A stretch of DNA of 64,000 nucleotides from Candidatus Nomurabacteria bacterium RIFCSPHIGHO2_12_FULL_37_29 (GCA_001785675.1 MFUJ01000016.1:149-64148); one strand, 5' to 3'. Positions 3,266 to 45,924 are shown, counted from the first letter of the stretch. Numbers and translations: made by a program. Notes: generated from the sequence alone by a model not told the origin.

Positions 3266-4021
3266 TCAGATCAACCTCTTAATTTTACTCATCACATCCT
3301 TCACCCTTTTCCTCCTTGAGAGTTCTAGGGCAAGTTCATAGATGAGTAGGTCCGAAGACCTAAGGAGCCTTGCTTGCTGTTCAAGCGATCGGAATCCACG
3401 GAAGTATCTTCGACTATGCGCGAACGCAAGTCGAACCATCGAGGCCATGATATCCGAGAGGCATAATTCTCGCTCGAGAGTTGCATTTTCATGCAATTTC
3501 TCAAGCGTTGAGAGTTTCTGCCTGATCTCGTCAGCACACAGCTCAACGATAGATTTCGAGAGCGAGGCGGGGTAGGGAACAAGCAGCTCCCTAAGTCGGA
3601 CACTGATATCCGTAACATCATACAGAGTCTCGGCAGTTGCCAAGTCTCCGCACAACGCTTCTGGCAACCAGTATCCGGTAGCCCAGGGGCGGTGTTGACA
3701 GCCCAGATTCCTGCCCTCAATCCACTCCTCGACCTGCCTAACGAGCAAGGCTGAATCGCAAACTGCGACACCTCCAGAGCCCATCGGCAGATCAAAGCGA
3801 ACACTGTCATCGCACACAAAGAAGTTTCCGGTTGGCCACCGATTCTCTAGCAAAGCTTTGATGGTGTTGGAATATCTTTCAATACTCCCGTCATCACAGC
3901 CTGCCAAAAGGTCGATTTTGCCTTTTGCCGAATTCCTCTTCAGTCCAACATGTAGTAGCACTTTCATGCCATACAATTCACGCAAAACGTGAGACAGATC
4001 GGAGGCTAAGCTATTTTTCAT
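3266..4021 (-). CDS. hypothetical protein, possibly nucleotidyltransferase-like; last gene of the high-GC operon
   Basis: 251-aa ORF with high GC. Its start overlaps the stop of the upstream gene by 4 nt (4018-4021). No firm domain; KGKIDLLAGCDDGS and the helical C-terminus are only weakly NTase-like. Confidence 0.45.
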   Translation of the reverse strand: MKNSLASDLSHVLRELYGMKVLLHVGLKRNSAKGKIDLLAGCDDGSIERYSNTIKALLENRWPTGNFFVCDDSVRFDLPMGSGGVAVCDSALLVRQVEEWIEGRNLGCQHRPWATGYWLPEALCGDLATAETLYDVTDISVRLRELLVPYPASLSKSIVELCADEIRQKLSTLEKLHENATLERELCLSDIMASMVRLAFAHSRRYFRGFRSLEQQARLLRSSDLLIYELALELSRRKRVKDVMSKIKRLI

Positions 4022-5136
4022 AGTGCCTCCTTGTTCCGTTTCGACTCCTCAAGCTCGATAAGAGCCTTCGGAAATCCGAATGTGGACGTTAGATACTCGA
4101 TGTCTGATCCGGTCAGAGGGCCATTACTGCGAGAGGTAAGTTTTGTATATTCCTTCCTCCCACGCTCAAGCCCCTTCTCGAATTTTGACACCTCCTCGGC
4201 AAACACAGTCTGCACCGCATCAGCCGAGGCCCATTGATTTCCTGATATCACGACAAACTCATCAAATGAGATGGATGTCTGTCGGCAGAGGATGAAAGCC
4301 TCTCGGATGAGTTTCCGAAGGACATAATCCGCCGCTTTGTTTCCAGGCCGAAGCCCTTCCGATACCAGGAGTACCGCCGCTTTGCCGAGATCGGCGAGGC
4401 GACACATGATGGCTTGATCCTTTACTTCGGATTGTTCCGTGATGGATTCGATCACGCCTTTCCAGCTCGAGTTTTCGTAATCGCTGCCACAGCATTCGAC
4501 TGCTGTGACGATACGATCAATGCTCGCTCCCGAATCGGCGGCAATCTTCTCCAGGGGAGATTCGAAAAGCGTTTCGCCCAGAAACTCGGTAAAGACCAAG
4601 TTCCAGAGCTCGATCGACTTATCCGTGTCTGGATTTCTCCAGACGATCTCCGTGCGAATACCGCATCGATTCTGGGTCGGAGTAAAGGTGACGTTCTTGT
4701 CATTGCTGACAGTCCTGACACCCAACCTTTCCCATATTTTCTGCGATGTTGCATCTTGTGGATGCACTGTTGCCGACAGCGTGGCAGGGCTGATCCCTGC
4801 ACACACTGTCAGATAATGCCAAGCACTCTCGATCATTACATCCTTCACCTCTTGCTCCTTGCCCTCGTAGAGGGAAAAGTGGCCGAGCATGTCGAATGCA
4901 AGATGGTGCCTTCCCGACAAACCGATCTTCTCCCATCTATCTGTCCGCAAGCATGTCTGAACCGAAACGACACGGGTCTTCTCAGGGATTACTCCATGAG
5001 AGATCGCGTTCTCGAAAACGACACCGCCAGAGATGTTGAACAGGAGCTTAGGGTTTGCGCTTACGATTGGAACGCTGTCTTGCCACTGGAAACCGAAGGT
5101 CCCGAAGTGGCGTCTGATTTCATCATACGTCTTCAT
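4018..5136 (-). CDS. divergent alanyl-tRNA synthetase catalytic-domain homolog (mini-AlaRS-like, 372 aa)
   Basis: Class II AlaRS motifs are present: NPKLLFNISGGVVF, RHHLAFDMLGHFSLY, ELWNLVFTEF, ADSGASIDR and YVLRKLIREA. Motif 3 (GPCGPC) is degenerate (NRCGIRTE). The start is set at the ATG 5136-5134, which forms an ATGA overlap with the radical SAM stop. The longer ORF call to 5430 overlaps the upstream gene by 300 nt. Confidence 0.65.
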   Translation of the reverse strand: MKTYDEIRRHFGTFGFQWQDSVPIVSANPKLLFNISGGVVFENAISHGVIPEKTRVVSVQTCLRTDRWEKIGLSGRHHLAFDMLGHFSLYEGKEQEVKDVMIESAWHYLTVCAGISPATLSATVHPQDATSQKIWERLGVRTVSNDKNVTFTPTQNRCGIRTEIVWRNPDTDKSIELWNLVFTEFLGETLFESPLEKIAADSGASIDRIVTAVECCGSDYENSSWKGVIESITEQSEVKDQAIMCRLADLGKAAVLLVSEGLRPGNKAADYVLRKLIREAFILCRQTSISFDEFVVISGNQWASADAVQTVFAEEVSKFEKGLERGRKEYTKLTSRSNGPLTGSDIEYLTSTFGFPKALIELEESKRNKEAL

Positions 5137-6356
5137 GGAGAACCTCCCATTGCCAGATGTTTGAATACAGTCTGCCTGACTGCGTAGGTGAACTTGCTCA
5201 TCTCGGGATGAGTAACAAGTCCGTGGTTGATATCCCAACTCACTACGTGAGCCGGAATCCCGAGGCTGTCCAAGATACCCTGTGCTCGCTCCGCCGTCAT
5301 ATTGTAGGCTGAGCCTTGAGCGCAGATTCTCCGTTGGGCCAGAGGGCAGCGAGATGCCTCGCATTCTGACCGCGCGAAAATCTGTACCGAAGTGATGCTC
5401 GGAATCTTGAGCATCCGAGTAAGGGCGCACGACGACTTGAGATAGACGGGGATACCGGGAAAGTGTTCGGCGCTCAGTGAGAAGATGGAATCCACCAACT
5501 CCTGCGGCAACAACTTCACATTGTCATCCCGAGGGATGTTCGGCATGGGGAGCTTATGAATCTCCACCAGTCCGTTCTCGATACCTTCCGTCCAGCGCAG
5601 ACCGCCCGGAACGATCATGTCGATGACTTCGCCGTAGTGTTTTTTCACCCACAGCATCATCATCTCGATTCTGTCCCGATTACCGCTCCACTCAGGAACG
5701 ATCGGTCGCATGTACCACGCAATGGTGGCTCCTGCTTCCTTGGCTTCCTCAGAATTGAGAAAGCGGTTGTTATGCGCTGGCTCAATCGTGTCTGGATTGT
5801 CTGCCCAGCACAGCGACAGCATCAAGCCGCGCGTTGCATTCGAGATGCGGGCGAAGTCAAGCTTCCTCCCTTTAGGAACGCCACCTTTGGTAACGATCCA
5901 GAAGGGATTCCGTAGACCGCGCCGGACGAATCCGTCCATGATCTCGAATGTACTGTCTACGACAGCAGGAGCGAACGGCTCCGTGCTTGCTGTCCCGATG
6001 CTGATGATTGTCTCATCAGCAATGAAGAACGGATGCTTGACCAGTTCATCGAGGATTTGATCCACGCTAAACTGATTGCGCCGTTTCGGTTTTCTCGGCA
6101 TGGTGCCTCGCTCGTCGAGATCTTGGTAGGTCCCTTGAACGTGGCAGTACCGGCATTGCCAGGCGCAACCGATCCAGAGATCGATGCTCAGCGAGCTGTT
6201 GGACACACTGACTGATGAAAGGGGATGATTACTATCTGGCACGAGAGCTCCATACGTGTATTCACGCAAGGAAAACTCCTGTCCCGTAGTCGTGCCCCTG
6301 ATTTGGACGAGCGGCTCAGAATTAATGGCCGCGAAGTATTCCATCTTGGAATTCAT
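5133..6356 (-). CDS. radical SAM protein (SPL/DNA-photolyase-like family)
   Basis: CAWQCRYC is a CxxxCxxC cluster in the GC..C.YC context seen in spore-photoproduct-lyase-like radical SAM enzymes. 4-nt overlaps on both sides. Confidence 0.6.
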   Translation of the reverse strand: MNSKMEYFAAINSEPLVQIRGTTTGQEFSLREYTYGALVPDSNHPLSSVSVSNSSLSIDLWIGCAWQCRYCHVQGTYQDLDERGTMPRKPKRRNQFSVDQILDELVKHPFFIADETIISIGTASTEPFAPAVVDSTFEIMDGFVRRGLRNPFWIVTKGGVPKGRKLDFARISNATRGLMLSLCWADNPDTIEPAHNNRFLNSEEAKEAGATIAWYMRPIVPEWSGNRDRIEMMMLWVKKHYGEVIDMIVPGGLRWTEGIENGLVEIHKLPMPNIPRDDNVKLLPQELVDSIFSLSAEHFPGIPVYLKSSCALTRMLKIPSITSVQIFARSECEASRCPLAQRRICAQGSAYNMTAERAQGILDSLGIPAHVVSWDINHGLVTHPEMSKFTYAVRQTVFKHLAMGGSP

Positions 6357-7093
6357 GTGACTTCTCCTTTCAGGTAGTTGATGTTTCGTGTGACTTGTTC
6401 TTCCGTTGTCATACCAATGACAACGGAAGTGCCGAGGGTGAGTGCATTTCGTGCAACCATCTCGGCCGAGTGCGGGTCAGTGAGCAACTTCCCCTGTTTG
6501 AACAGACTTCTCAAGAGAACCTCCTTTTTAAGATCAAGCAGATATGGGAGCTGTTGAAGCGCCCAAGTCTGCTCAGTGTTGAAAGGAGCTTCAATCACGT
6601 CGATGTGCGGCAAAACCGCTTCAGCGACAGGATATGAGAAATTGTCGGGTAGGGAAATTCCTACACGCTTGACGATGCCTTCATCCTTAAGCCCCTTAAG
6701 GCACTCAAGGATTACTACTGCTTCTGACGACCACGTGGGCAACCAGTTGTGCAGAAGTACCGTGTCGATGGAAGATCGCCGTAGCCTTTCCAATGATCCG
6801 TACACACTTCGATGTATGCCATCTCGTGAGTAAAATCTTTGGATCGGTTCAGGTGCTTCCAGATTCGGTTTTGATGCTGCCGGAATTTTGGTCACAATGA
6901 CCGCATCTTCCGGTAGGCATGCGCCAAGCATCTCCTCGACCTTGCCTCCACCATAGACGGCCGCCGTATCAAAACGACGGATACCGGAGCTGATGGCGAA
7001 AAGCAGAAGCGATTCAATATAGGCAGGGGACAGGTTTTTGAACTGTCCTCCAAGTTGCCACGTACCGAAGTAGAGGCGATCAAACCAGTCCAT
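6353..7093 (-). CDS. aldo/keto reductase family oxidoreductase
   Basis: GTWQLGG...GIRRFDTAAVYGGGKVEEMLG is the aldo/keto reductase N-terminal signature. 246 aa; first gene of the minus-strand operon. Confidence 0.7.
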   Translation of the reverse strand: MDWFDRLYFGTWQLGGQFKNLSPAYIESLLLFAISSGIRRFDTAAVYGGGKVEEMLGACLPEDAVIVTKIPAASKPNLEAPEPIQRFYSRDGIHRSVYGSLERLRRSSIDTVLLHNWLPTWSSEAVVILECLKGLKDEGIVKRVGISLPDNFSYPVAEAVLPHIDVIEAPFNTEQTWALQQLPYLLDLKKEVLLRSLFKQGKLLTDPHSAEMVARNALTLGTSVVIGMTTEEQVTRNINYLKGEVT

Positions 7094-7275
7094 GTTTTCT
7101 CCTTAATTTTTAGGTTGTAAAAGAGCGTGGAATTGCGATAAGTTCTAGCACAAAACTACAATATATTCTCTAAAATGTCAATGGGTATCCCAAAAGGCGT
7201 ATCCTTGCCGTAATTATAATTGTGTGTTAATGTAATGCCGGAACGAAAACCCTAAACCACAGAAAGGACCTTGTA

Positions 7276-8568
7276 ATGAAACTGCTATATAAGACGACCG
7301 AGGAAGTGCGCCAGACCTTTCTGAGCCACTTTCTCAAGCATGATCACCAGCTCATCGATCCATCGGGGATCATTCCCAAGAACGATTCGACTCTCATGTT
7401 CATCAACTCGGGTATGGCCCCGCTCAAGCCATATTTCACGGGCCAAGCGAAACCGCCGTATCCGCGCCTGACGAACGTGCAGGACTGCATCAGGTTTGTG
7501 GACGTTGAAAGCGTCGGCGATTCCTATCACGGAACGAACTTCCGCATGATGGGTTCCTGGTCCTTCGGAGACTACTTCAAAGAACGGGCCATCGAGCTTG
7601 CCTTTGAACTCATCACCGAGGGATTCGGTATTCCTGCTGAACGTCTCTCCGCCACGGTATTCCTGGCAGACGAAAGTCTGCCAGGCGTACCGAGCGACGA
7701 AGAATCGGCTCGCATCTGGGAGAAATTCTTACCGCGAGATCGAATCATCGGACGGCCACCAGTAGACAACTTCTGGGGTCCAGCGGGAACCAGTGGTCCA
7801 TGTGGCCCTTGCACGGAAGTCTTCTTTGATCGAGGCGAGGAATTCGCCGAGAAAGAAACGGACGACGTGCTGGTTCCTGGGCGACACATCGAGATCTGGA
7901 ATGCCGGAGTGTTCATGCAATACTTCAAAGACGAGCAAGGGAATTTCTCTCCGCTCCCTATGAAGTGCGTGGATACGGGAGCGGGCCTTGAGCGCTTCGC
8001 CATGATCCTACAGGGCCGTGCCTCGATCCACGAGATCGATCAGTACGGCTCGTCCTACCAACTCATCAATCAGAGAATTGGTGACACGGCATGGACGAGG
8101 GTCATTCTCGACCACATCAAGACCTCGATTCTGATGATTCGTGAGGGTATCATTCCGAGCAACACTCGGGAGGGTTACCTTCTCCGTCGTGCGCTTCGGC
8201 GTGCGATGATCGGCATCTTCCTGCGAGGGATCAATCTGACCATTCTTCAGGAGTGGGCAGACTCTCTCAGCGAAGTGATCGATAACAAGGACCTGACCAT
8301 GCGTCAGAAATCTGTTATTGCACACTGGCTCAGCGAGGAGCGTGATAGCTTCGAAAAGCTGATGCATCGCAGCAGAAAGTATCTCGATAAGATCGTCATG
8401 GCTAAGGAGTTGGATGCGCAACATGCATTCACTTTGAAAACCGGCGTGGGTATTCCCGAAGATCTTCTGGAGGAATTCTGTTCTCGTCACGGCATTCCAT
8501 TTCCGAAGATTGAGTTCCTCCGACTTATTGAGGGGCATAAGGATGTCTCGCGTCGGCCGAAGAAGTAG
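7276..8568 (+). CDS. truncated alanyl-tRNA synthetase catalytic core (430 aa, no editing or C-Ala domains)
   Basis: Near-canonical AlaRS motifs: NSGMAPLKPYF, FRMMGSWSFGDYFK, GPCGPCTEVFFDRG, IEIWNAGVFMQYF, VDTGAGLERFAMIL and GYLLRRALRRA. The ORF ends in RRPKK* immediately before a terminator. High GC. Confidence 0.7.
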   Translation: MKLLYKTTEEVRQTFLSHFLKHDHQLIDPSGIIPKNDSTLMFINSGMAPLKPYFTGQAKPPYPRLTNVQDCIRFVDVESVGDSYHGTNFRMMGSWSFGDYFKERAIELAFELITEGFGIPAERLSATVFLADESLPGVPSDEESARIWEKFLPRDRIIGRPPVDNFWGPAGTSGPCGPCTEVFFDRGEEFAEKETDDVLVPGRHIEIWNAGVFMQYFKDEQGNFSPLPMKCVDTGAGLERFAMILQGRASIHEIDQYGSSYQLINQRIGDTAWTRVILDHIKTSILMIREGIIPSNTREGYLLRRALRRAMIGIFLRGINLTILQEWADSLSEVIDNKDLTMRQKSVIAHWLSEERDSFEKLMHRSRKYLDKIVMAKELDAQHAFTLKTGVGIPEDLLEEFCSRHGIPFPKIEFLRLIEGHKDVSRRPKK

Positions 8569-28528: not shown

Positions 28529-30683
28529 TTAATTTATGTTTTGGCCAACTTTCCACCATTAAAAGATTTTTTTTATTTGGTAGCATAGACCAGATTTCTT
28601 CTGTGACAAAAGGCATAAATGGGTGTAGAACCTTGAGTAGGGTAATGAGGTGCATATAGAGAAGTATTTTTGCCGAATCTGCATTTTTATTTTCTAGAAT
28701 TTTTTTCTTCGAACGTTCTATTATAATATCAGCAAAAGTATGCCATGTATAGTGATATAATTTTTCAGCAACAATATAAAACTTATATTCATCCATCTCT
28801 TTTGTAATCTCTCCAATTAGGGAATTTAATTCTTCATCTGTGGCTTTATCTTCTTCATCATACTCTAGTTTCTCTTTAATATTGAAATTTTTTGCATTGT
28901 TCATATTCTCCATAACAAAACGTGCTGCGTTCCAGATTTTGTTTGAAAATTTACTATAGGCTTTTACTTTTTGGATATCAAATTTAGCATCTGCTCCCGG
29001 TCCGATGCCCACGATCATTGACATACGGAGCGCATCAGCACCATATTTTTCTATGATTTCGATAGGATCTATTCCATTATCTAATGATTTGCTAAATTTT
29101 TGTCCTTTAACATCTCGAAGCATTCCATGAAGGTACACTGTTTTAAAAGGAATTTCATCTATTAAATATTCTGACATTAGAATCATGCGAGCAACCCAGA
29201 AGAATAATATTTCGTATCCTGGATTTATGACGCTTGTTGGATGAAAGTTTTTCAAATCTTCTGTTTGGTTTGGCCAGCCAAGGGTTGAGAAAGTCCATAA
29301 CCCCGAAGAGAACCAAGTATCTAGTGTATCTTCATCTTGAATCCAATCGTTGCCCGGATTTTCTCCCACAATTATTTCATCTCCTTTGTAAAAAACAGGA
29401 ATCCTGTGTCCATACCAGATTTGTCTGGAAATACACCAATCGCGGAGATTTTCTATCCAATTATAGTAAACTTTTTCGAAATGACTTGGTATAATTTTAA
29501 TTTTGCCTTCTTGCACTGGATTAAGCATTAATTCTTTAAGAGATTTATTATTTCGAGAAGGAATTTTATGATTTACATTCACAAACCATTGAAGCATAAT
29601 TTGTGGCTCAATAATGCCTCCAGTTCTCTCAGCAGTGGCAACTCTATTTACATAATTTTCATCAATCGATACGAGTAATCCTTTTGTTTTTAGTTTCTCA
29701 ACAATTTTTTCACGTGCATCATTAATTTTCATTCCCGCGAATTCTTCTGCGATGGGAAGCAGCTTCCCATATTTATCAATAATTTGCTCTTTTTCTAGTT
29801 TATATTTAAGAGCGAGCGTGAAATCTTCGTGCGAGTGCCAAGGTGTGATGGTCATCGCTCCCGTACCGAATTCCATATCAATCATCTCATCTTTAATGAT
29901 TGTGGCCTCTATAGGGCCGTTGATCCACTCTAGTTTTATTTTTTGACCCTGTTTATACTCCGCGTATCTTTTATCTTCTGGATGCATCACCACGTATTTA
30001 TCACCAAATTTTGTTTCTGGCCGAGCTGTGGAAATAGAAAAAGGTCCATATTTAAAGGTATAAAATTTACCTTTTTGTTCTTTGTAAACTATTTCATCAT
30101 CAGAAATCACTGTCTGACCTTTCGGGTCCCAGTTTACAACTCTATTCCCTCTGTAAATCAGTCCATCGTCATACATTTTTTTGAATGTAGTTTTGACGGC
30201 AGTATTACGAGCTTCGTCTAAAGTAAAAGCTTCACGAGACCAGTCAAGAGATGCCCCAATTTTTCGGAGCTGACTCACAATAGTTTTTCTACTATTCTCC
30301 ACAAATGTATTTACATGTTCCAAGAATTTTTCTCGTCCGATATCTTTTTTATTTAAACCTTCTTTTTCAAGTATTTTTGTAACTTTGGAATCGGTGGCTA
30401 TGGCTGCATGATCTGTGCCAGGGAGCCAGAGAGTTTTTTTGCCCTGCATTCTATTGTAGCGAATCATAGTGTCTTGCATAGAATCTTCCAATGCATGACC
30501 TAAATGAAGTACGCCAGTAGCATTTGGAGGAGGGAGTACTATTGAAAAGTACGGAGCATCTGATTTTGTTATACCTTTTTCCACACACACATCTGGGTTA
30601 AAAAAACCGCTATCTTCCCACAGCTTATATATTCTTTCTTCTGTTTCTTTTGGATTGTAGGGTTTTAGCAGTTTATCGTTCAT
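28518..30683 (-). CDS. valS: valyl-tRNA synthetase (compact 721-aa form)
   Basis: PPPNATGVLHLGHALEDSMQDTMIRYNRMQGKKTLWLPGTDHAAIAT (HIGH region), KFSKSLDN (KMSKS) and a CP1 editing domain. Confidence 0.85.
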   Translation of the reverse strand: MNDKLLKPYNPKETEERIYKLWEDSGFFNPDVCVEKGITKSDAPYFSIVLPPPNATGVLHLGHALEDSMQDTMIRYNRMQGKKTLWLPGTDHAAIATDSKVTKILEKEGLNKKDIGREKFLEHVNTFVENSRKTIVSQLRKIGASLDWSREAFTLDEARNTAVKTTFKKMYDDGLIYRGNRVVNWDPKGQTVISDDEIVYKEQKGKFYTFKYGPFSISTARPETKFGDKYVVMHPEDKRYAEYKQGQKIKLEWINGPIEATIIKDEMIDMEFGTGAMTITPWHSHEDFTLALKYKLEKEQIIDKYGKLLPIAEEFAGMKINDAREKIVEKLKTKGLLVSIDENYVNRVATAERTGGIIEPQIMLQWFVNVNHKIPSRNNKSLKELMLNPVQEGKIKIIPSHFEKVYYNWIENLRDWCISRQIWYGHRIPVFYKGDEIIVGENPGNDWIQDEDTLDTWFSSGLWTFSTLGWPNQTEDLKNFHPTSVINPGYEILFFWVARMILMSEYLIDEIPFKTVYLHGMLRDVKGQKFSKSLDNGIDPIEIIEKYGADALRMSMIVGIGPGADAKFDIQKVKAYSKFSNKIWNAARFVMENMNNAKNFNIKEKLEYDEEDKATDEELNSLIGEITKEMDEYKFYIVAEKLYHYTWHTFADIIIERSKKKILENKNADSAKILLYMHLITLLKVLHPFMPFVTEEIWSMLPNKKNLLMVESWPKHKLNDK

Positions 30684-30715
30684 TCCTAAATAATACCATA
30701 GAATATTAGGTTTTT

Positions 30716-31909
30716 CTATTTTAGTCTTAAATTACCACTTGCTTTTATATTGGAAGCCTTGCCAAATTTTCCTTTCTTTTTTGCATAGAGCAAGTATCCC
30801 GCTATGCCAATCATTAAAGAATTATCTCCCACAAGTTCTTTTGGGGGAAATAGAAGTTTGATTTTATTACTTGCCTGTCCTTTGACGCGACTTGCAATTT
30901 TTTTTATTTCATTTCTCAAGTGTTGATTCGCAGCCACTCCTCCCGCAACAATAAGAGTTTTTACTTTATATTTTTCTATCGCTTTTTTTGTTTTATAAAT
31001 CAAACATTCAATGGCCGCGTTTTCAAATTCTAAAGCTATTTTTATTTTTGTTTTTTCATCTAGTAAACCAATTTTCTTGATTAAGTAAAGAACCGCCGTT
31101 TTCAGTCCCGAAAAAGAAAAATCTAAATTCTTAGAATGAAGCATTGGGCGCGGGAGGGAAAAAGAAAATAAGCTTTGATGGGACTCCACAGGGCGACGGC
31201 CCGAGGACTGAGTAAATTTTTCAGCAGAAAAATTACGACCCTGAAAAGTTTTATTTTCTTTTTCCCTCTCCCTCCCTTCTTCTGCCAATTTAGATATTTG
31301 TGGACCGCCAGGGTAGGGGAGGTCGAGCATCCGAGCAACTTTATCAAAAGCTTCGCCGACGGCATCGTCCAAGGTTTCGCCAATTATTTCATATCGCATC
31401 CACTTTTTACTGAGTACTAACTGTGTGTGTCCACCAGAAACCAAAAGAGAAAGTGTTGGAGTTTTCACTTTGGGTATGGTAAATTTTCCTTTATTTTTTC
31501 CAAATACAGAAAGTATATGTCCTTCCATGTGATTTACAGGCACCACGGGCACATTCCACTTTTTTGTTAACTCCTGCGCAAAAGTTATGCCTGCCCAGAG
31601 CGCTGGTTCTAATCCTGGACCATAAGTCACAGCTATTAAGTCAATCGGTGCTTTGGTCGTTAGGTCTTGCCTAGCGACGTTGTTTAGATGGGCTTGCTTT
31701 AATGCTTGTTCTAGCAGAATTGGTAAATTTTTAATATGTTCTTGTTTAGCGAGCATTGGATATACTCCGCCATAAGGAATATGGATTTTTATTTGCGAAT
31801 TTGAAATATCCGCCAAAACTTTGAAAGAAGCATTATTAATGCCTCCTTTTGCTTCCACTATACTTATTCCAGTATCGTCGCAAGATGTTTCAATCGAAAG
31901 AATGATCAT
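30716..31909 (-). CDS. tsaD: tRNA N6-adenosine threonylcarbamoyltransferase TsaD (Kae1/YgjD family)
   Basis: MIILSIETSCDDTGISIV and GVAANQHLR. Metal-binding HxxH in NHMEGHIL. 397 aa with an internal insertion. Confidence 0.85.
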   Translation of the reverse strand: MIILSIETSCDDTGISIVEAKGGINNASFKVLADISNSQIKIHIPYGGVYPMLAKQEHIKNLPILLEQALKQAHLNNVARQDLTTKAPIDLIAVTYGPGLEPALWAGITFAQELTKKWNVPVVPVNHMEGHILSVFGKNKGKFTIPKVKTPTLSLLVSGGHTQLVLSKKWMRYEIIGETLDDAVGEAFDKVARMLDLPYPGGPQISKLAEEGREREKENKTFQGRNFSAEKFTQSSGRRPVESHQSLFSFSLPRPMLHSKNLDFSFSGLKTAVLYLIKKIGLLDEKTKIKIALEFENAAIECLIYKTKKAIEKYKVKTLIVAGGVAANQHLRNEIKKIASRVKGQASNKIKLLFPPKELVGDNSLMIGIAGYLLYAKKKGKFGKASNIKASGNLRLK

Positions 31910-31999
31910 GTTAATTAATCAGGGGCAAAGTTCTTTTAGTTCTTTCTTCATTACTATAAATCAAAAAAAATTATTTTAATTTGACTTAATTCAGTTATA

Positions 32000-32386
32000 T
32001 TATTGTGTTGTTACACCGTCAAAGTGCTCCTCTTTCTCGTCCATTTTAGTTTTCTGTATCGTACCATCTTGATGTTCTGGTGGTGAATATAGTGTATAAA
32101 GTTTCAGATCAAGAGAACCAGTGTTTACAATATTGTGTCGAGTGCCTTGAGGGATCATAATTGCTTCATCGGTGCCAAAGCTATGTTCTTCACCATCAAT
32201 TATTGCCCTAGCTTCTCCTTCCTCAATACGAATAAACTGGTCAAGCTTATGAACTTCTTCCCCAATTTCTTCGCCAGGCTTTAGGTTCATTAATACAAGC
32301 TGGCTATTTTTTGCGGTATAAAGCACGCGACGGTAATCAGTATTCTCTTTTGTTGCTTTTTCTATATTGATTTTAAATCCTTTCAT
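32000..32386 (-). CDS. cupin-domain protein
   Basis: VLMNLKPGEEIGEEVHKLDQFIRIEEGEARAIIDGEEH...IPQGTRHNIVNTG is the cupin two-motif pattern. Confidence 0.6.
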   Translation of the reverse strand: MKGFKINIEKATKENTDYRRVLYTAKNSQLVLMNLKPGEEIGEEVHKLDQFIRIEEGEARAIIDGEEHSFGTDEAIMIPQGTRHNIVNTGSLDLKLYTLYSPPEHQDGTIQKTKMDEKEEHFDGVTTQ

Positions 32387-32448
32387 ATTCTTGGTTTATG
32401 TGTTTAATTATAATAAAAAACCTATCTTACAATTATACCACAATCTTA

Positions 32449-32467
32449 GTGCCGGGAGGGAGACTCG
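32449..32467 (-). repeat. 19-bp direct repeat duplicating the 3' end of tRNA-Leu(TAG)
   Basis: gtgccgggagggagactcg at 32449-32467 is identical to 32562-32580 (the tRNA 3' acceptor/T-arm), 94 bp away. Confidence 0.7.
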
Positions 32468-32562
32468 GTCACAGGTCTTTTTCTATTGAAAAAGCCTGCG
32501 ACCCCACCTCGACACGTCTGTCTCCGGCTTTCGAGTCAGCACAAATATATAACATATCTTTG

Positions 32563-32644
32563 TGCCGGGAGGGAGACTCGAACTCCCAAGGGTTGCCCCA
32601 CTAGTTCCTAAGACTAGCGCGTATACCAATTCCGCCATCCCGGC
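32563..32644 (-). tRNA. tRNA-Leu (anticodon TAG), type II
   Basis: Reverse complement folds as acceptor GCCGGGA/TCCCGGC, anticodon stem CTAGT/ACTAG with loop CTTAGGA, a long variable arm, and T-arm GGGAG-TTCGAGT-CTCCC. No encoded CCA. Confidence 0.75.
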
Positions 32645-32766
32645 AAAAATCAAACCGTTTCGCACAAAGTGCGTTAGCACTTTGTGCGCCTAATTGTAGC
32701 AAATTGGAACCTTATTTTCAATCAAATAAAGGGTTTTTCGTTTGTTTAGTAAAAAATTAAATTTTT

Positions 32767-33127
32767 ATGTTTGCCATTTACAGTTTATACATTTTATGTT
32801 ATAAGCTATTTGAAGGAGTCAAGATCTTGGGACAAAATTTCGCAGCGATGTGTTATGTGGCGGCCGCAGTCCGAGCTGGACAATTACCAGACAAAGATCG
32901 TACTGACGCCGAAATACAGGCGTTGTTCACGGCAAGTTGTCAGACCCTACCACCATGCCCCAAATGCAATCGGACAATGGTCAGTAGCGGGGGTCAATTT
33001 CACTGCACCGTTCACGGCGATCCGACGCTGTTACCCAACGAGGAAGTTAGTGACGAGGCGTGGATGGGAGCAGAACGTAACCGTCTATAATTCAAAAGGG
33101 TCGAGAGTCTCATACTCTCAAGGATAG
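32767..33127. other. GC-rich ~400-bp segment open in two overlapping + frames; candidate structured ncRNA or small Zn-ribbon protein
   Basis: About 50% GC against about 33% in the flanks. ORFs of 107 and 118 aa lie in frames +1 and +2 over the same DNA. The first contains CPKCNRTM...HCTVHG. Sits inside a minus-strand tRNA cluster. No RNase P, tmRNA or SRP core motifs found by eye. Confidence 0.3.
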
Positions 33128-33325
33128 CCAGACACACCGAAAGGAGGTAAGGTGCCTGGCTATTTTCAATTTCAACACAGAATGATTTTGTGGTCAGGAA
33201 TAATTTTGTTTTTGTCAAAACAAAATTTTCACGACCCTGCCTCGTCTATTTTTTCTGCTGAAAAAATATGACTCCGGCTCGCACAGCTAAAAAATCTACA
33301 GAAGTGCAGATTTTTCTTTACGCTG

Positions 33326-33398
33326 TGCGCCCAGTAGGGATCGAACCTACGACATTCTCCTTAAGAGGGAGCTACTCTACCAGCTGAGTTATGGGCGC
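33326..33398 (-). tRNA. tRNA-Lys (anticodon CTT)
   Basis: Reverse complement GCGCCCA-TA-ACTC-AGCTGGTAG-AGT...GCTCC-CTCTTAA-GGAGA...GTAGG-TTCGATC-CCTAC-TGGGCGC-A. 73 nt. Confidence 0.75.
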
Positions 33399-33508
33399 AT
33401 ATAATACATTTATCTTCTATCTTCTAATTTCAAACTACATTTACTAATATCTCGTCCTACCAAAACACTTATGGGCGCAAAAAATTTAATTTTCAAAAAA
33501 CTCTCAAG

Positions 33509-33590
33509 TGCCCGAGGTGGGAATCGAACCCACATCCCTTACGAGACACGATTTTAAGTCGTGCGCGTATACCAATTCCGCCACTCGGGC
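33509..33590 (-). tRNA. tRNA-Leu (anticodon TAA), type II
   Basis: Reverse complement GCCCGAG...CACGA-CTTAAAA-TCGTG, long variable arm, GTGGG-TTCGATT-CCCAC, acceptor 3' CTCGGGC and discriminator A. 82 nt. Confidence 0.75.
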
Positions 33591-33607
33591 ATATTTATTT
33601 TGCCTGG

Positions 33608-33679
33608 AGGCCTGGGGCGGAATTGAACCGCCGTATATTCCTTTTGCAGAGGAATGCCTTACCACTTGGCTACCAGGCC
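33608..33679 (-). tRNA. tRNA-Cys (anticodon GCA)
   Basis: Reverse complement GGCCTGG-TA-GCC-AAGTGGTAA-GGC...TTCCT-CTGCAAA-AGGAA...GGCGG-TTCAATT-CCGCC-CCAGGCC-T. Discriminator U, as expected for Cys. 72 nt. Confidence 0.75.
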
Positions 33680-33720: not shown

Positions 33721-33776
33721 CCTCTGCGCAGAGGAATGGCATATTCGCTACGCTCACGCCACTTGGCTACCAGGCC
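33721..33776 (-). pseudogene. tRNA-Cys 5'-half-like fragment
   Basis: The reverse complement begins GGCCTGGTAGCCAAGTGG, identical to the first 18 nt of tRNA-Cys about 90 bp away. It then diverges into CGTGAGCGTAGCGAATATGCCATTCCTCTGCGCAGAGG and ends in the palindrome cctctgcgcagagg. No T-arm or acceptor 3' strand. Confidence 0.5.
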
Positions 33777-33809
33777 ATTTTCAAACTATAACCTATAACC
33801 AACAACCTA

Positions 33810-36322: not shown

Positions 36323-37564
36323 ATGCTAAAATCAAATAACGCAAAAAAAATATATCTAGATTATGCATCCAGTTCGCTTCTTAACTCCGCGAATCCAGGA
36401 GCAATTCATGAATTTGGAATAAAAGAAAAAAACAAACTTGAAGAAGCCAGGACAACTGTTGCAAAGACTTTAAATGCATATCCCAATGAAATTATTTTCA
36501 CATCCGGCGCAACGGAAAGTAACAACTTGGCTATTTTAGGGTTAGTTCAGAATTTTAAGCAATATTCTAAGTTGCCACACATAATAACTACAAATATCGA
36601 ACATTCATCTGTTTTAGAAATTTGTAAACATTTAGAAAAAACAAAACAAGCAGAAGTGACTTATATAAAAGTAGAATTGAACGGAATAATTGATCCAAAG
36701 AAAATAAAAAAAGCCCTTAAAAAAAATACCATCTTAGTTTCGGTTATGTATGCGAATAATGAAATTGGTACGGTCCAGCCGATACAAGATATTGCAAAAG
36801 AGATTAGACATTGGAAAAAAGGCAAAGATAGCTTTTTGGAGCACAGATATTTTTCTGTTGAAAAATTCCTCGTGCTTACGCCGTCAAGAGTTTCTAAAAA
36901 GCTATCTTTGCCTTTTTTCCATACCGATGCTACACAAGCAATAAATTATTTACCCATAAATGTTCAAAAATTAGGAATTGATTTAATGTCTTTTAATAGT
37001 GCTAAAATTTATGGACCTAAAGGGGTCGGTGTCTTATATGTAAAAAAATACACACCTGTCAGGAAAATTATGTTCGGTGGAGATCAAGAAAGGGGACTAC
37101 GACCGGGAACAGAAAATGTGGTCGGGGCTATTGTGTTAGCCTCTGCCATAGAAATTACTGAAAAAATAAAAAAAAAGGAAACTATTCGTTTAACCAAACT
37201 CCGAGATTATTTTTTTAATGAGCTACAAGCAATGTCAAAGACGATCTTTAGCACTGGATTAATAGTAAACGGTGACTTAACAAACAGATTACCCAATAAT
37301 GTGAATATTAGTTTTAAAAATATTCCGAGCGACCTTCTGGTAATTGAGTTATCAGCTAGAGGTATCATGGCTTCTGCTAAAAGTGCCTGTAAAGCTGGAG
37401 ACAGTAAAGCTTCGCATGTAATAAAAGCGATTAATCCAAAAGCCAAAGACACAGATGGATCTTTAAGATTTTCCCTAGGCAAAGATACTACAAAAAAAGA
37501 TATTGATTATACTGTCAAAGCTTTTACTCAAATTTTGACAAAACTAAAAAAGTGGTATAATTAA
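36323..37564 (+). CDS. cysteine desulfurase (IscS/NifS, class V aminotransferase)
   Basis: IYLDYASSS near the N-terminus, TSGATESNNLAI, a PLP-lysine region SFNSAKIYGPKGVGVLYV, and active-site loop SAKSACKAG. Confidence 0.75.
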   Translation: MLKSNNAKKIYLDYASSSLLNSANPGAIHEFGIKEKNKLEEARTTVAKTLNAYPNEIIFTSGATESNNLAILGLVQNFKQYSKLPHIITTNIEHSSVLEICKHLEKTKQAEVTYIKVELNGIIDPKKIKKALKKNTILVSVMYANNEIGTVQPIQDIAKEIRHWKKGKDSFLEHRYFSVEKFLVLTPSRVSKKLSLPFFHTDATQAINYLPINVQKLGIDLMSFNSAKIYGPKGVGVLYVKKYTPVRKIMFGGDQERGLRPGTENVVGAIVLASAIEITEKIKKKETIRLTKLRDYFFNELQAMSKTIFSTGLIVNGDLTNRLPNNVNISFKNIPSDLLVIELSARGIMASAKSACKAGDSKASHVIKAINPKAKDTDGSLRFSLGKDTTKKDIDYTVKAFTQILTKLKKWYN

Positions 37565-45225: not shown

Positions 45226-45924
45226 AAATTTTTGTTGTTAAATTGATAAACTGCTTCTAATAAACACACAAGCGAAGTCAGCTCAACTCGAGCTTGAGCC
45301 TTGTCAATTGGTTGACCATACTCTTCGAGATAGATGGCCACATATTTTTCTATTTGCTTCTCGGTAATTGGCATAAATAGAAAATCCACTTTTGGCTTGG
45401 CAGGCTACTGAGCAAGCGACCTGCAAACCCAAAAATGGATTTATTAGTGCTCAGTATTTACTGCCAAACAAAACAACCGCACTTCATAATGCGGTTTATG
45501 AAAGCAAAAAGCTGCCGTCATATTCCATGTCATCATGAAATAAAACGGCAGCCTCTCGATTTTTCCTGCCCAGTGAGATTCCTAGTCTCTTGTACAACCT
45601 TCTGTCTTAGAGAAGGCGCTCCGATTTACCGGAGAGGTGTGCATATATAATAATGCTAAAAAAATTCAAGTCAAATGAGGGGTGTTAATAAGTTTAAGAA
45701 AAAAAGTAAGATGTGATAAGATGTTGTTATAACTTAATAAGAAAGACCTAACCCTTATAGCGATATGAGATATGGTCAAAAGACCCATGGAAGACACTGA
45801 ACCCCTCGTTCAGCAACTCTTCCATGGGCTATACAGGGAAACTTGTATAGGGTCGTAAGACCTAGCTGGCGTGGGGTTCTGTGTTTTTCCGCGCTAGCTT
45901 ATTATCAGCTAGCTTTTTATTTTT

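Follow-up and report, generated by a model that had tools for sequence, protein, structure and literature searches.

The window, which is the whole 64,000-nt stretch of DNA analysed here, comes from the clade Candidatus Nomurabacteria (Patescibacteria) and carries a tRNA array on the - strand, downstream of infB-rbfA. A GC-rich segment sits in this array between tRNA-Leu(tag) and tRNA-Lys, both of which are - strand genes. An earlier note on this DNA had described a GC-rich segment inside the tRNA cluster, and our measurements agree: GC content is 0.49-0.53 in 200-nt windows across 32800-33199 and peaks at 0.555, whereas the window as a whole averages 0.38 and the flanks about 0.29-0.36. The other GC-rich parts of the window are ordinary protein genes. 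In the clade, the array runs in the order rbfA, tRNA-Cys, tRNA-Leu(taa), tRNA-Lys(ctt), a spacer that we call X, and tRNA-Leu(tag). The genes around the segment are as follows:

33605-33679, - strand: tRNA-Cys
33508-33590, - strand: tRNA-Leu(taa)
33325-33398, - strand: tRNA-Lys(ctt), found by ARAGORN and Rfam
32645-33186: insert of 542 bp between X1 (the copy of X behind tRNA-Lys) and tRNA-Leu(tag); lineage-specific
32562-32644, - strand: tRNA-Leu(tag), found by ARAGORN and Rfam; separated from X1 by the insert
32000-32386: cupin gene, next after tRNA-Leu(tag) in the direction of the array

The insert between X and tRNA-Leu(tag)

Seventy-nine syntenic loci from different Nomurabacteria/Paceibacteria species were fetched with RbfA as the anchor. 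The tRNA order is kept in about 60 relatives, and about 20 species have roughly 5-60 nt between X and tRNA-Leu(tag). The window has an extra 542 bp (32645-33186), which separate the end of X at 33187 (CCTGACCACAAA) from the start of tRNA-Leu(tag) at 32644. The relatives match the flagged region at 33187-33332 and, weakly, at two hairpins at 33100-33170, and blastn, nhmmer, tblastn and tblastx searches of the 79 relatives gave no match to the ORF body. No paralogue of the insert was found within the window. The insert is specific to this lineage, and no known RNA family matches it. L015, the contig that matches the window best, was rejected as an empty-site reference, with 99.9% identity on the tRNA-Leu(tag) side and ~73% on the rbfA side. 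This contig is chimeric or recombinant, and the empty-site inference therefore rests on other relatives. L004 likewise has a breakpoint, at tRNA-Lys.

In relatives, the spacers of the array act as a hot spot for selfish DNA. Unusually long spacers of other species contain AT-rich ORFs that lie on the same strand as the tRNAs and that Pfam identifies as LAGLIDADG or HNH endonucleases. A metagenome contig (L091) has an element of 6.8 kb, which encodes a large serine recombinase, in precisely the interval from tRNA-Lys to tRNA-Leu(tag). Three further loci (L062, L090 and L092) contain an insert of 421 bp whose antisense ORF, of 83 aa, is a different one. A tRNA-targeting integrative element was rejected as the nature of the window's insert: the 542 bp hold no recombinase ORF, and there is no direct repeat at the insert junctions.

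Within the insert, the promoter zone at 32645-32750 matches L062. The promoter module at 32693-32721 in this zone is identical in L062 and six metagenome contigs, where it lies upstream of tRNAs and protein genes. A block of ~55 nt (AAAACCCTTTAT.TGATTGAAAATAAGGTTCCAATTTG.TACAAT) beside the downstream tRNA is common to the window insert, L062 and L091. We rejected the block as the signature of a cassette family, because a metagenome scan placed the same block upstream of unrelated protein genes, and for this reason the shared block is read as a clade-typical promoter.

Element X, a structured spacer behind tRNAs

The earlier note had pointed to a long hairpin at the edge of the GC-rich segment. 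The hairpin is real (33281-33330; -30 kcal/mol in a 66-nt context) and belongs to a conserved structured RNA, but it is read from the opposite (tRNA) strand and lies outside both the GC-rich body and the insert. It constitutes helix P1 of X1 and overlaps the 3' end of tRNA-Lys, with its 5' arm beginning in the last bases of that tRNA.

An alignment of X from 20 species (A1) was analysed with RNAalifold, which revealed 24 consensus pairs in three helices, 13 of them with compensatory double changes. In A1, 98.5% of cells are paired, compared with 39-52% when the partners are slid by 1-3 columns, and none of 500 shuffles reached the observed values. Conserved G-U pairs place X on the tRNA strand (the - strand of the window). 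P1, the trailer hairpin, is accompanied by P2 with its 3-bp platform and by a long P3 whose loop reads CAGCAG. Covariation among homologous loci, which had been suggested as a check on the whole segment, is thus present in the hairpin element X (20 species), whereas the GC-rich body has no homologue in the 79 loci.

A covariance model of X (R1) detected three copies of X in the window, given here with the tRNA fragment that follows the second copy:

33179-33332, - strand: X1, trailing tRNA-Lys; P1, then P2 and P3; R1 score 87.7 bits
32467-32566, - strand: X2, trailing tRNA-Leu(tag); R1 score 47.8 bits, E=1.5e-10
32449-32468: copy of the tRNA-Leu 3' end, 19-20 nt, following X2
36827-36955: third, weaker copy of X, away from any tRNA; R1 score 25.8 bits

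Modules similar to X2 plus the fragment occur in L079, L032 and L008; the 19-nt tRNA-Leu fragment is part of the X2 module and not of the insert. Searches of the relatives with R1 gave 32 matches, and weak matches were found at a syntenic non-tRNA site in L048 and L070. In many Nomurabacteria, X modules trail tRNA-Lys, tRNA-Leu(tag) and at least one non-tRNA site. Rfam holds no family for X, either in the window or in eight relatives. We consider it fairly probable that X is a real functional RNA family absent from Rfam. Because of its position, X could be a stable processed small RNA of the spacer, or an element for tRNA processing or termination that is specific to this clade with its reduced genomes. 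X is the more novel item of the locus, compared with the GC-rich insert.

The GC-rich body and its reading frames

The insert holds two overlapping + strand frames and several candidate signals, the latter recognised by matches to consensus sequences or by predicted folding:

32827-33090, + strand: ORF1, 87 codons, from TTG at 32827 to TAA at 33088-33090
32771-33127, + strand: ORF2, 118 aa, +1 frame, overlaps ORF1; judged spurious
32771-32805, + strand: promoter-like sites upstream of ORF1, TTGCCA-18-TATGTT overlapping TTTACA-17-(TG)-TATAAG
32815-32818, + strand: GGAG, 8 nt upstream of the TTG at 32827
33103-33119, + strand: small hairpin GAGAGT-CTCAT-ACTCTC, just past the ORF1 stop; -7 kcal/mol
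33121-33177, + strand: terminator-like hairpin (hairpin 33121-33166), core ATAGCCAG...CTGGCTAT, then TTTTCAATTTC
32693-32721, - strand: promoter TTGAAA-17(TG)-TACAAT, facing tRNA-Leu(tag); 10/12 consensus matches, with TG
32661-32688, - strand: leader hairpin CGCACAAAGTGC-TAAC-GCACTTTGTGCG, between the promoter and tRNA-Leu(tag)

These consensus matches suggest that ORF1, with a promoter and a ribosome-binding site before it and a terminator behind it, makes up a tidy unit on the strand opposite to the tRNAs. In DNA this rich in A and T, consensus matches such as the promoter-like sites upstream of ORF1 do not prove function. The Shine-Dalgarno motif is weak evidence, because GGAG or GAGG also precedes about a quarter of the long ORFs in the window. 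The terminator-like hairpin has a folding energy of -15 kcal/mol alone and -26.9 kcal/mol jointly with the small hairpin at 33103-33119; a strict terminator scan left it out since its loop exceeds the limit of the scan. On the tRNA side, the promoter at 32693-32721 belongs to the ~55-nt clade-typical block, and its module occurs once in the window. The leader hairpin is similar to P1, the trailer hairpin of tRNA-Lys, in relatives such as L061, with 90% identity between the leader hairpin region (WIN 5444-5474) and L061 4707-4737.

The small hairpin past ORF1 weakly resembles, on the - strand, the T-arm of tRNA-Leu (19/25, shuffle p ~0.02), and nhmmer aligns it to tRNA-Leu genes of relatives. 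The Rfam tRNA model does not match this hairpin. A pseudo-tRNA-Leu at 33100-33180 was therefore set aside: with a weak local similarity (p ~0.02) and no match to the tRNA model, we mention it as a possibility and do not claim it.

The earlier note had read the GC-rich body as compositionally constrained non-coding RNA, a reading that our searches do not support. It had seen no RNase P, tmRNA or SRP motifs by eye, and Rfam 15 likewise detected none, even at E<=10. The same scan, which had been proposed as a way to recognise a known RNA, covered RNase P, tmRNA, SRP, 6S, group I/II introns, ROOL/GOLLD, HEARO and others, and gave no match in 32645-33186, whether at the gathering score or with permissive filters at E<=10. 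Folding of the body (32812-33095) is on a par with that of its shuffles (z = +0.49), of which 141 of 200 fold at least as well. For the 381 nt at 32800-33180, z is -1.66 on the + strand and -1.62 on the - strand, values driven by the terminator hairpins. Searches found no sequence homologous to the body in the 79 syntenic loci, in six metagenome loci or in phage and viral collections. The GC-rich body as an RNA is not supported, and the flagged insert is no known or conserved RNA. By itself, GC-rich DNA that is open in several frames is no evidence for an RNA gene in an AT-rich genome.

Two overlapping + frames of more than 100 codons had been reported, and both are present, at 32767-33090 (107 aa) and 32771-33127 (118 aa), within stop-free stretches of 109 and 124 codons. 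Within 32827-33087, the three + frames hold 0, 0 and 5 stops and the three - frames 4, 5 and 3; the + strand thus has five stop triplets where ~9 are expected, all confined to the third frame, and the - strand has 12. Two stop-free frames are rare both among dinucleotide shuffles (0.16%) and among codon-order shuffles (0.1%), whereas a single stop-free frame of 87 codons arises in 10% of dinucleotide shuffles. The two open frames are unusual, yet they are not diagnostic, because 11% of 88-codon windows within genuine GC-rich genes of the same window also have a second open frame. Spurious overlapping ORFs of >100 aa occur in the GC-rich genes at 4018-8568, which comprise two tRNA-synt_2c (AlaRS-like) ORFs and an aldo-keto-reductase gene. 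The rule that two open frames mean RNA, on which the non-coding reading had leaned, fails in this genome, where GC-rich protein genes carry the same kind of spurious ORF. We attribute the second open frame to GC richness combined with chance.

ORF2 fits this description. Protein searches found no homologue of ORF2, and it is nowhere called as a gene. Pfam, PHROG and NCBIfam gave no match, its composition is junk-like, and no Shine-Dalgarno motif precedes any start inside the GC-rich island. AlphaFold returned a model with pLDDT 34.8, pTM 0.22 and no residue above 50.

GenBank annotates ORF1 from the ATG at 32767 as a 107-aa hypothetical protein, A3C60_01185, and the product is identical to A3C60_01185 of Candidatus Nomurabacteria bacterium RIFCSPHIGHO2_02_FULL_37_4x. 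Assemblies from NCBI, JGI and ENA contain ORF1 on 24 contigs, each time intact and unchanged; the insert has no SNPs among seven contigs, and the population is nearly clonal. The predicted tryptic peptides of the product include TDAEIQALFTASCQTLPPCPK and TMVSSGGQFHCTVHGDPTLLPNEEVSDEAWMGAER.

The plausible Zn-ribbon frame of the earlier note (CPKC...HCTVHG) has turned out to be the better-supported reading of the segment. The motif lies in ORF1, whose knuckles CPKCN and CTVHG stand 12 residues apart, so that CPKC and CTVH form two zinc knuckles of the type CxxC plus CxxC/H with ~10-20 residue spacing. This double-knuckle pattern occurs in 0.7% of residue shuffles (p ~0.007). Profile searches revealed weak zinc-ribbon matches to PADR1 (E=0.002), TFS (E=0.006) and TiaS, all below the curated cut-offs (PADR1 18.2 vs 25.1 bits, TiaS 14.0 vs 27.3 bits, TFS 17.3 vs 64.75 bits). 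Pfam, NCBIfam and PDB sequence searches with ORF1 and ORF2 gave these sub-threshold zinc-ribbon matches only. A single-sequence AlphaFold model of ORF1, of low confidence (pLDDT 58, pTM 0.43), shows two helices plus beta-hairpins at residues 50-68. The best Foldseek match to this low-confidence model, the Zn3/PADR1 domain of PARP-1 (E=0.076, TM 0.28-0.31), is not significant. Judged by its zinc knuckles and by a predicted pLDDT above that of the other frame, the ORF1 product looks protein-like.

The first codon position of ORF1 is G-rich and T-poor (G1=0.37, T1=0.16), as in host genes. Its codon-usage log-odds under host models are -7.9 bits, compared with +13.3 +/- 8.3 bits for windows of real GC-rich host genes, and under the GC-rich codon model it does not stand clearly above ORF2. 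A foreign origin would also account for codon usage unlike that of the host.

Searches for a homologue of the ORF product covered about 15 billion proteins and recovered none: in 5.8 billion clusters and 1.8 billion representatives, the genuine matches are ORF1 itself. The non-self matches (proteins of 7652, 1313 and 543 aa) were rejected as artefacts, since they sum weak internal-repeat matches of 24-28% identity. No viral or phage relative was found by phage blastn or in a viral-contig scan, and the best PHROG match (E=0.036) is to a family of unknown function. PADLOC gave no match to an anti-phage defence system, and Pfam gave no LAGLIDADG, HNH or GIY-YIG match. Because ORF1 has no homologue, membership in a family cannot be claimed.

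Interpretation of the insert

We favour the explanation that ORF1 is a real orphan gene for a small zinc-ribbon protein, foreign to its host and left by mobile DNA in the hot spot of the tRNA array (probability roughly 0.55). In the proposed course of events, 542 bp of foreign, higher-GC DNA (32645-33186) would have entered between X and tRNA-Leu(tag). The insert would be a compact transcription unit antisense to the tRNAs, and the unit would encode a small orphan protein in which two helices at the N-terminus precede a zinc ribbon (CxxC...CxxH) at the C-terminus. This would most likely be an accessory protein that binds nucleic acids or depends on zinc in some other way, and that a mobile element left behind. 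The terminator of ORF1 would cut tRNA-Leu(tag) off from the transcript of the upstream tRNAs, and the promoter at the AT-rich left end of the insert would drive this tRNA anew. As far as the sequence can tell, the insert may encode a small zinc-binding protein that is new and taxonomically restricted, captured in the hot spot together with a tRNA-rescuing promoter; an RNA specific to the lineage is the less likely product.

Several other explanations have to be weighed against this one. The insert might be non-functional foreign or rearranged scrap, such as a decayed element, in which the frames and knuckles are accidental and only the tRNA-facing promoter matters. This would suit the orphan status of ORF1 among about 15 billion proteins, its negative codon-model scores, the ease with which one open frame of this length arises (10% of shuffles), the use of the locus as a dumping ground for mobile DNA in relatives, and the faint tRNA-derived traces at its two ends. 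Scrap would hardly be expected, however, to keep two frames open (jointly p ~0.002) with so few stops on the + strand (5 vs ~9 expected, 12 on the - strand), to show the zinc-knuckle arrangement (p ~0.007), to yield a product clearly more foldable than the ORF2 control, or to have a start signal and a terminator that neatly bracket ORF1. We regard scrap as rather unlikely, though it has to be taken seriously. It is very improbable that the insert is a dual-coding cassette with both overlapping + frames translated. Two stop-free frames are rare (p ~0.001-0.002) and the five + strand stops all fall in the third frame, but ORF2 lacks a Shine-Dalgarno motif, a credible start inside the island and a homologue, its composition is junk-like and its pLDDT is 35, and 11% of windows in real GC-rich genes behave likewise.

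Two further explanations invoke RNA. Structured RNA genes are known to stand out by their high GC content in AT-rich genomes, and the segment might accordingly be a novel lineage-specific non-coding RNA of ~360 nt on the + strand, running from the promoter-like site to the terminator, whose signals fit an RNA gene equally well; the missing protein homologues and the weak codon signal of ORF1 would fit too. We consider this doubtful, given the lack of an Rfam family at E<=10, a body that folds like its shuffles (z = +0.49, and only -1.6 for the whole region), the missing conservation among 79 syntenic relatives, six loci from metagenomes and the collections of phages and viruses, and the fact that the window's other GC-rich parts are ordinary protein genes. 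It is barely credible that the insert is a diverged group I intron or some other mobile RNA in or beside a tRNA gene. Group I introns are frequent in tRNA genes of Patescibacteria and some escape the Rfam model RF00028 (PMC13011429), which makes a GC-rich segment within a tRNA array worth considering in this light. Against this, neither RF00028 nor RF00029 matched at E<=10, ARAGORN found no split tRNA and only intact tRNAs on either side, the insert is intergenic rather than in an anticodon loop and is not flanked by tRNA exon halves, relatives have no extra tRNA at its position, and there is no excess folding energy.

The orphan gene that we favour can be compared with several known systems. 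The zinc ribbons Zn_ribbon_PADR1 (PF08063), TFS/RpoM (TIGR01384) and TiaS (PF23783) share with ORF1 the knuckles CPxC[GN] and CxxHG, 12 residues apart. Small zinc-ribbon proteins also share with ORF1 a predicted pair of beta-hairpins after two helices and a length of <100 aa. Unlike these families, ORF1 has His rather than Cys as the fourth ligand, and its scores lie far below their cut-offs.

The setting recalls homing endonuclease genes in tRNA clusters, which like ORF1 are small lineage-specific genes wedged in a conserved array; segB of phage T4, for example, is a free-standing homing endonuclease gene inside a tRNA cluster (PMC2330249). The LAGLIDADG and HNH ORFs of related Nomurabacteria occupy the same array spacers as ORF1. 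These endonuclease ORFs are AT-rich, lie on the tRNA strand, encode 160-250 aa and carry LAGLIDADG or HNH motifs, whereas ORF1 is GC-rich, antisense and 87 aa long, with no nuclease motif. The serine-recombinase element of L091 and the window insert share the interval, the promoter module beside tRNA-Leu and a foreign composition. Unlike that element of 6.8 kb, the window insert has 542 bp, no recombinase and no direct repeats, and could be a remnant at most.

On the RNA side, the Breaker laboratory reportedly searches GC-rich intergenic regions for structured non-coding RNAs, and the insert resembles the regions of that pipeline in its length, its GC richness and its seeming lack of annotation within a genome rich in A and T. 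It differs from the structured RNAs of such searches in having no covariation, no conservation and no excess of folding. Such pipelines also recover short ORFs and scraps of mobile DNA, and the insert looks like this type of catch. With the group I introns of Patescibacteria tRNA genes, the insert has in common the phylum, the tRNA context and a length of a few hundred nucleotides; unlike them, it lies outside a tRNA, matches no intron model and has no exon halves (PMC13011429).

Taken together, the flagged segment most likely exemplifies something ordinary: a small orphan ORF within an insertion specific to the strain. The tRNA array of Nomurabacteria is a recurrent landing site for LAGLIDADG and HNH genes, a serine-recombinase element and small antisense ORFs, and we propose that the inserts bring along a promoter which maintains expression of the tRNA downstream. 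The same array holds a well-supported structured RNA spacer without an Rfam family. Patescibacteria have a reduced RNA-processing machinery, and for this reason the conserved tRNA-trailer structure X could bear on the maturation of tRNA precursors in these bacteria.

Structured RNA module X and tRNA duplicates in the array

Sequence comparison indicates that X, the spacer element of the minus-strand tRNA array, is a conserved structured RNA module. It is predicted to form three helices with a conserved CAGCAG loop, and compensatory changes were found at 13 of its 24 base pairs. In many Nomurabacteria (relatives within loci L008-L083), X is located 3' of tRNA-Lys(ctt) and tRNA-Leu(tag). A search of the window and eight relatives returned no matching Rfam family for X. 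The window holds three copies, the last of which is weaker and lies at an intergenic, non-tRNA site:

33179-33332, minus strand: X1, trailing tRNA-Lys
32467-32566, minus strand: X2, trailing tRNA-Leu(tag)
36827-36955, minus strand: weaker intergenic copy

Immediately after X2, a 19-20-nt copy of the tRNA-Leu(tag) 3' end, CGAGTCTCCCTCCCGGCAC, was observed at 32449-32468 on the minus strand. Together with X2, it resembles a duplicated X-plus-tRNA-Leu module from which most of the tRNA has been deleted. The same arrangement is present in the relative L079, where the fragment agrees with that locus's own tRNA-Leu variant. Additionally, the 5' half of tRNA-Cys is partly duplicated at 33722-33778 (minus strand), reading GGCCTGGTAGCCAAGTGG ... 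GCCATTCCTCTGCGCAGAGG with an 18-nt insertion; this partial duplicate is located a short distance upstream of the intact tRNA-Cys and is missing from the variant contig L004.

Population variation and other features of the window

Comparison of window positions 29767-33400 with contigs L001-L007 revealed ten polymorphic sites, none of which falls in the 542-bp GC-rich insert between X1 and tRNA-Leu(tag). ENA scaffold ERZ28563591 ANAN16-1 scaffold_350 is identical to the window across 4,009 compared bases, and GenBank MFUT01000015 differs from the window by 3 SNPs. Identity with the window switches abruptly from ~100% to 73-92% (a range shared by the two contigs) at exactly tRNA-Lys in L004 (ERZ4903125) and at exactly tRNA-Leu(tag) in L015 (MFTV01000013), and contigs L006 and L007 terminate at tRNA-Lys. 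These breakpoints and contig ends could stem from chimeric assembly, or from genuine recombination at tRNA genes between species that occur together.

Elsewhere, a 5.3-kb GC-rich island (3266-8568; GC up to 0.585) may have been horizontally acquired. Two of its ORFs, a minus-strand one of 470 aa and a plus-strand one of 430 aa, carry the core domain of class II alanyl-tRNA synthetases (tRNA-synt_2c); the island also contains an aldo-keto reductase, two further ORFs without a Pfam match, and antisense spurious ORFs of >100 aa. A LOOT RNA motif (Rfam RF03000) was matched full-length at 45745-45863 on the plus strand, scoring 80.7 bits where the gathering threshold is 46.4.

Mobile genes of the array and the promoter block

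In relatives, spacers of the tRNA array carry free-standing genes for homing endonucleases of the LAGLIDADG or HNH type. These genes are AT-rich and share the strand of the tRNAs, and Pfam confirmed the identity of three representatives. Such spacers were found at:

L034, 4322-5084
L036, 4797-5504
L019, 4667-5195
also in L041, L051, L067, L070, L081, L037 and L026

Moreover, in L091 (1-7059) a 6.8-kb element lies exactly between tRNA-Lys and tRNA-Leu(tag) and encodes a large serine recombinase (domains Resolvase, Recombinase and Zn_ribbon_recom). The promoter block at the end of this element is that of the window's insert:

32693-32750, minus strand: promoter block of ~55 nt, AAAACCCTTTAT.TGATTGAAAATAAGGTTCCAATTTG.TACAAT

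The block is nearly identical in the window, L062 and L087-L092, which represent distinct species and both tRNA and protein-gene contexts. Because this conservation is unusually high for a promoter, the block may additionally serve as a binding site for a regulator, or may be a promoter that is itself mobile.
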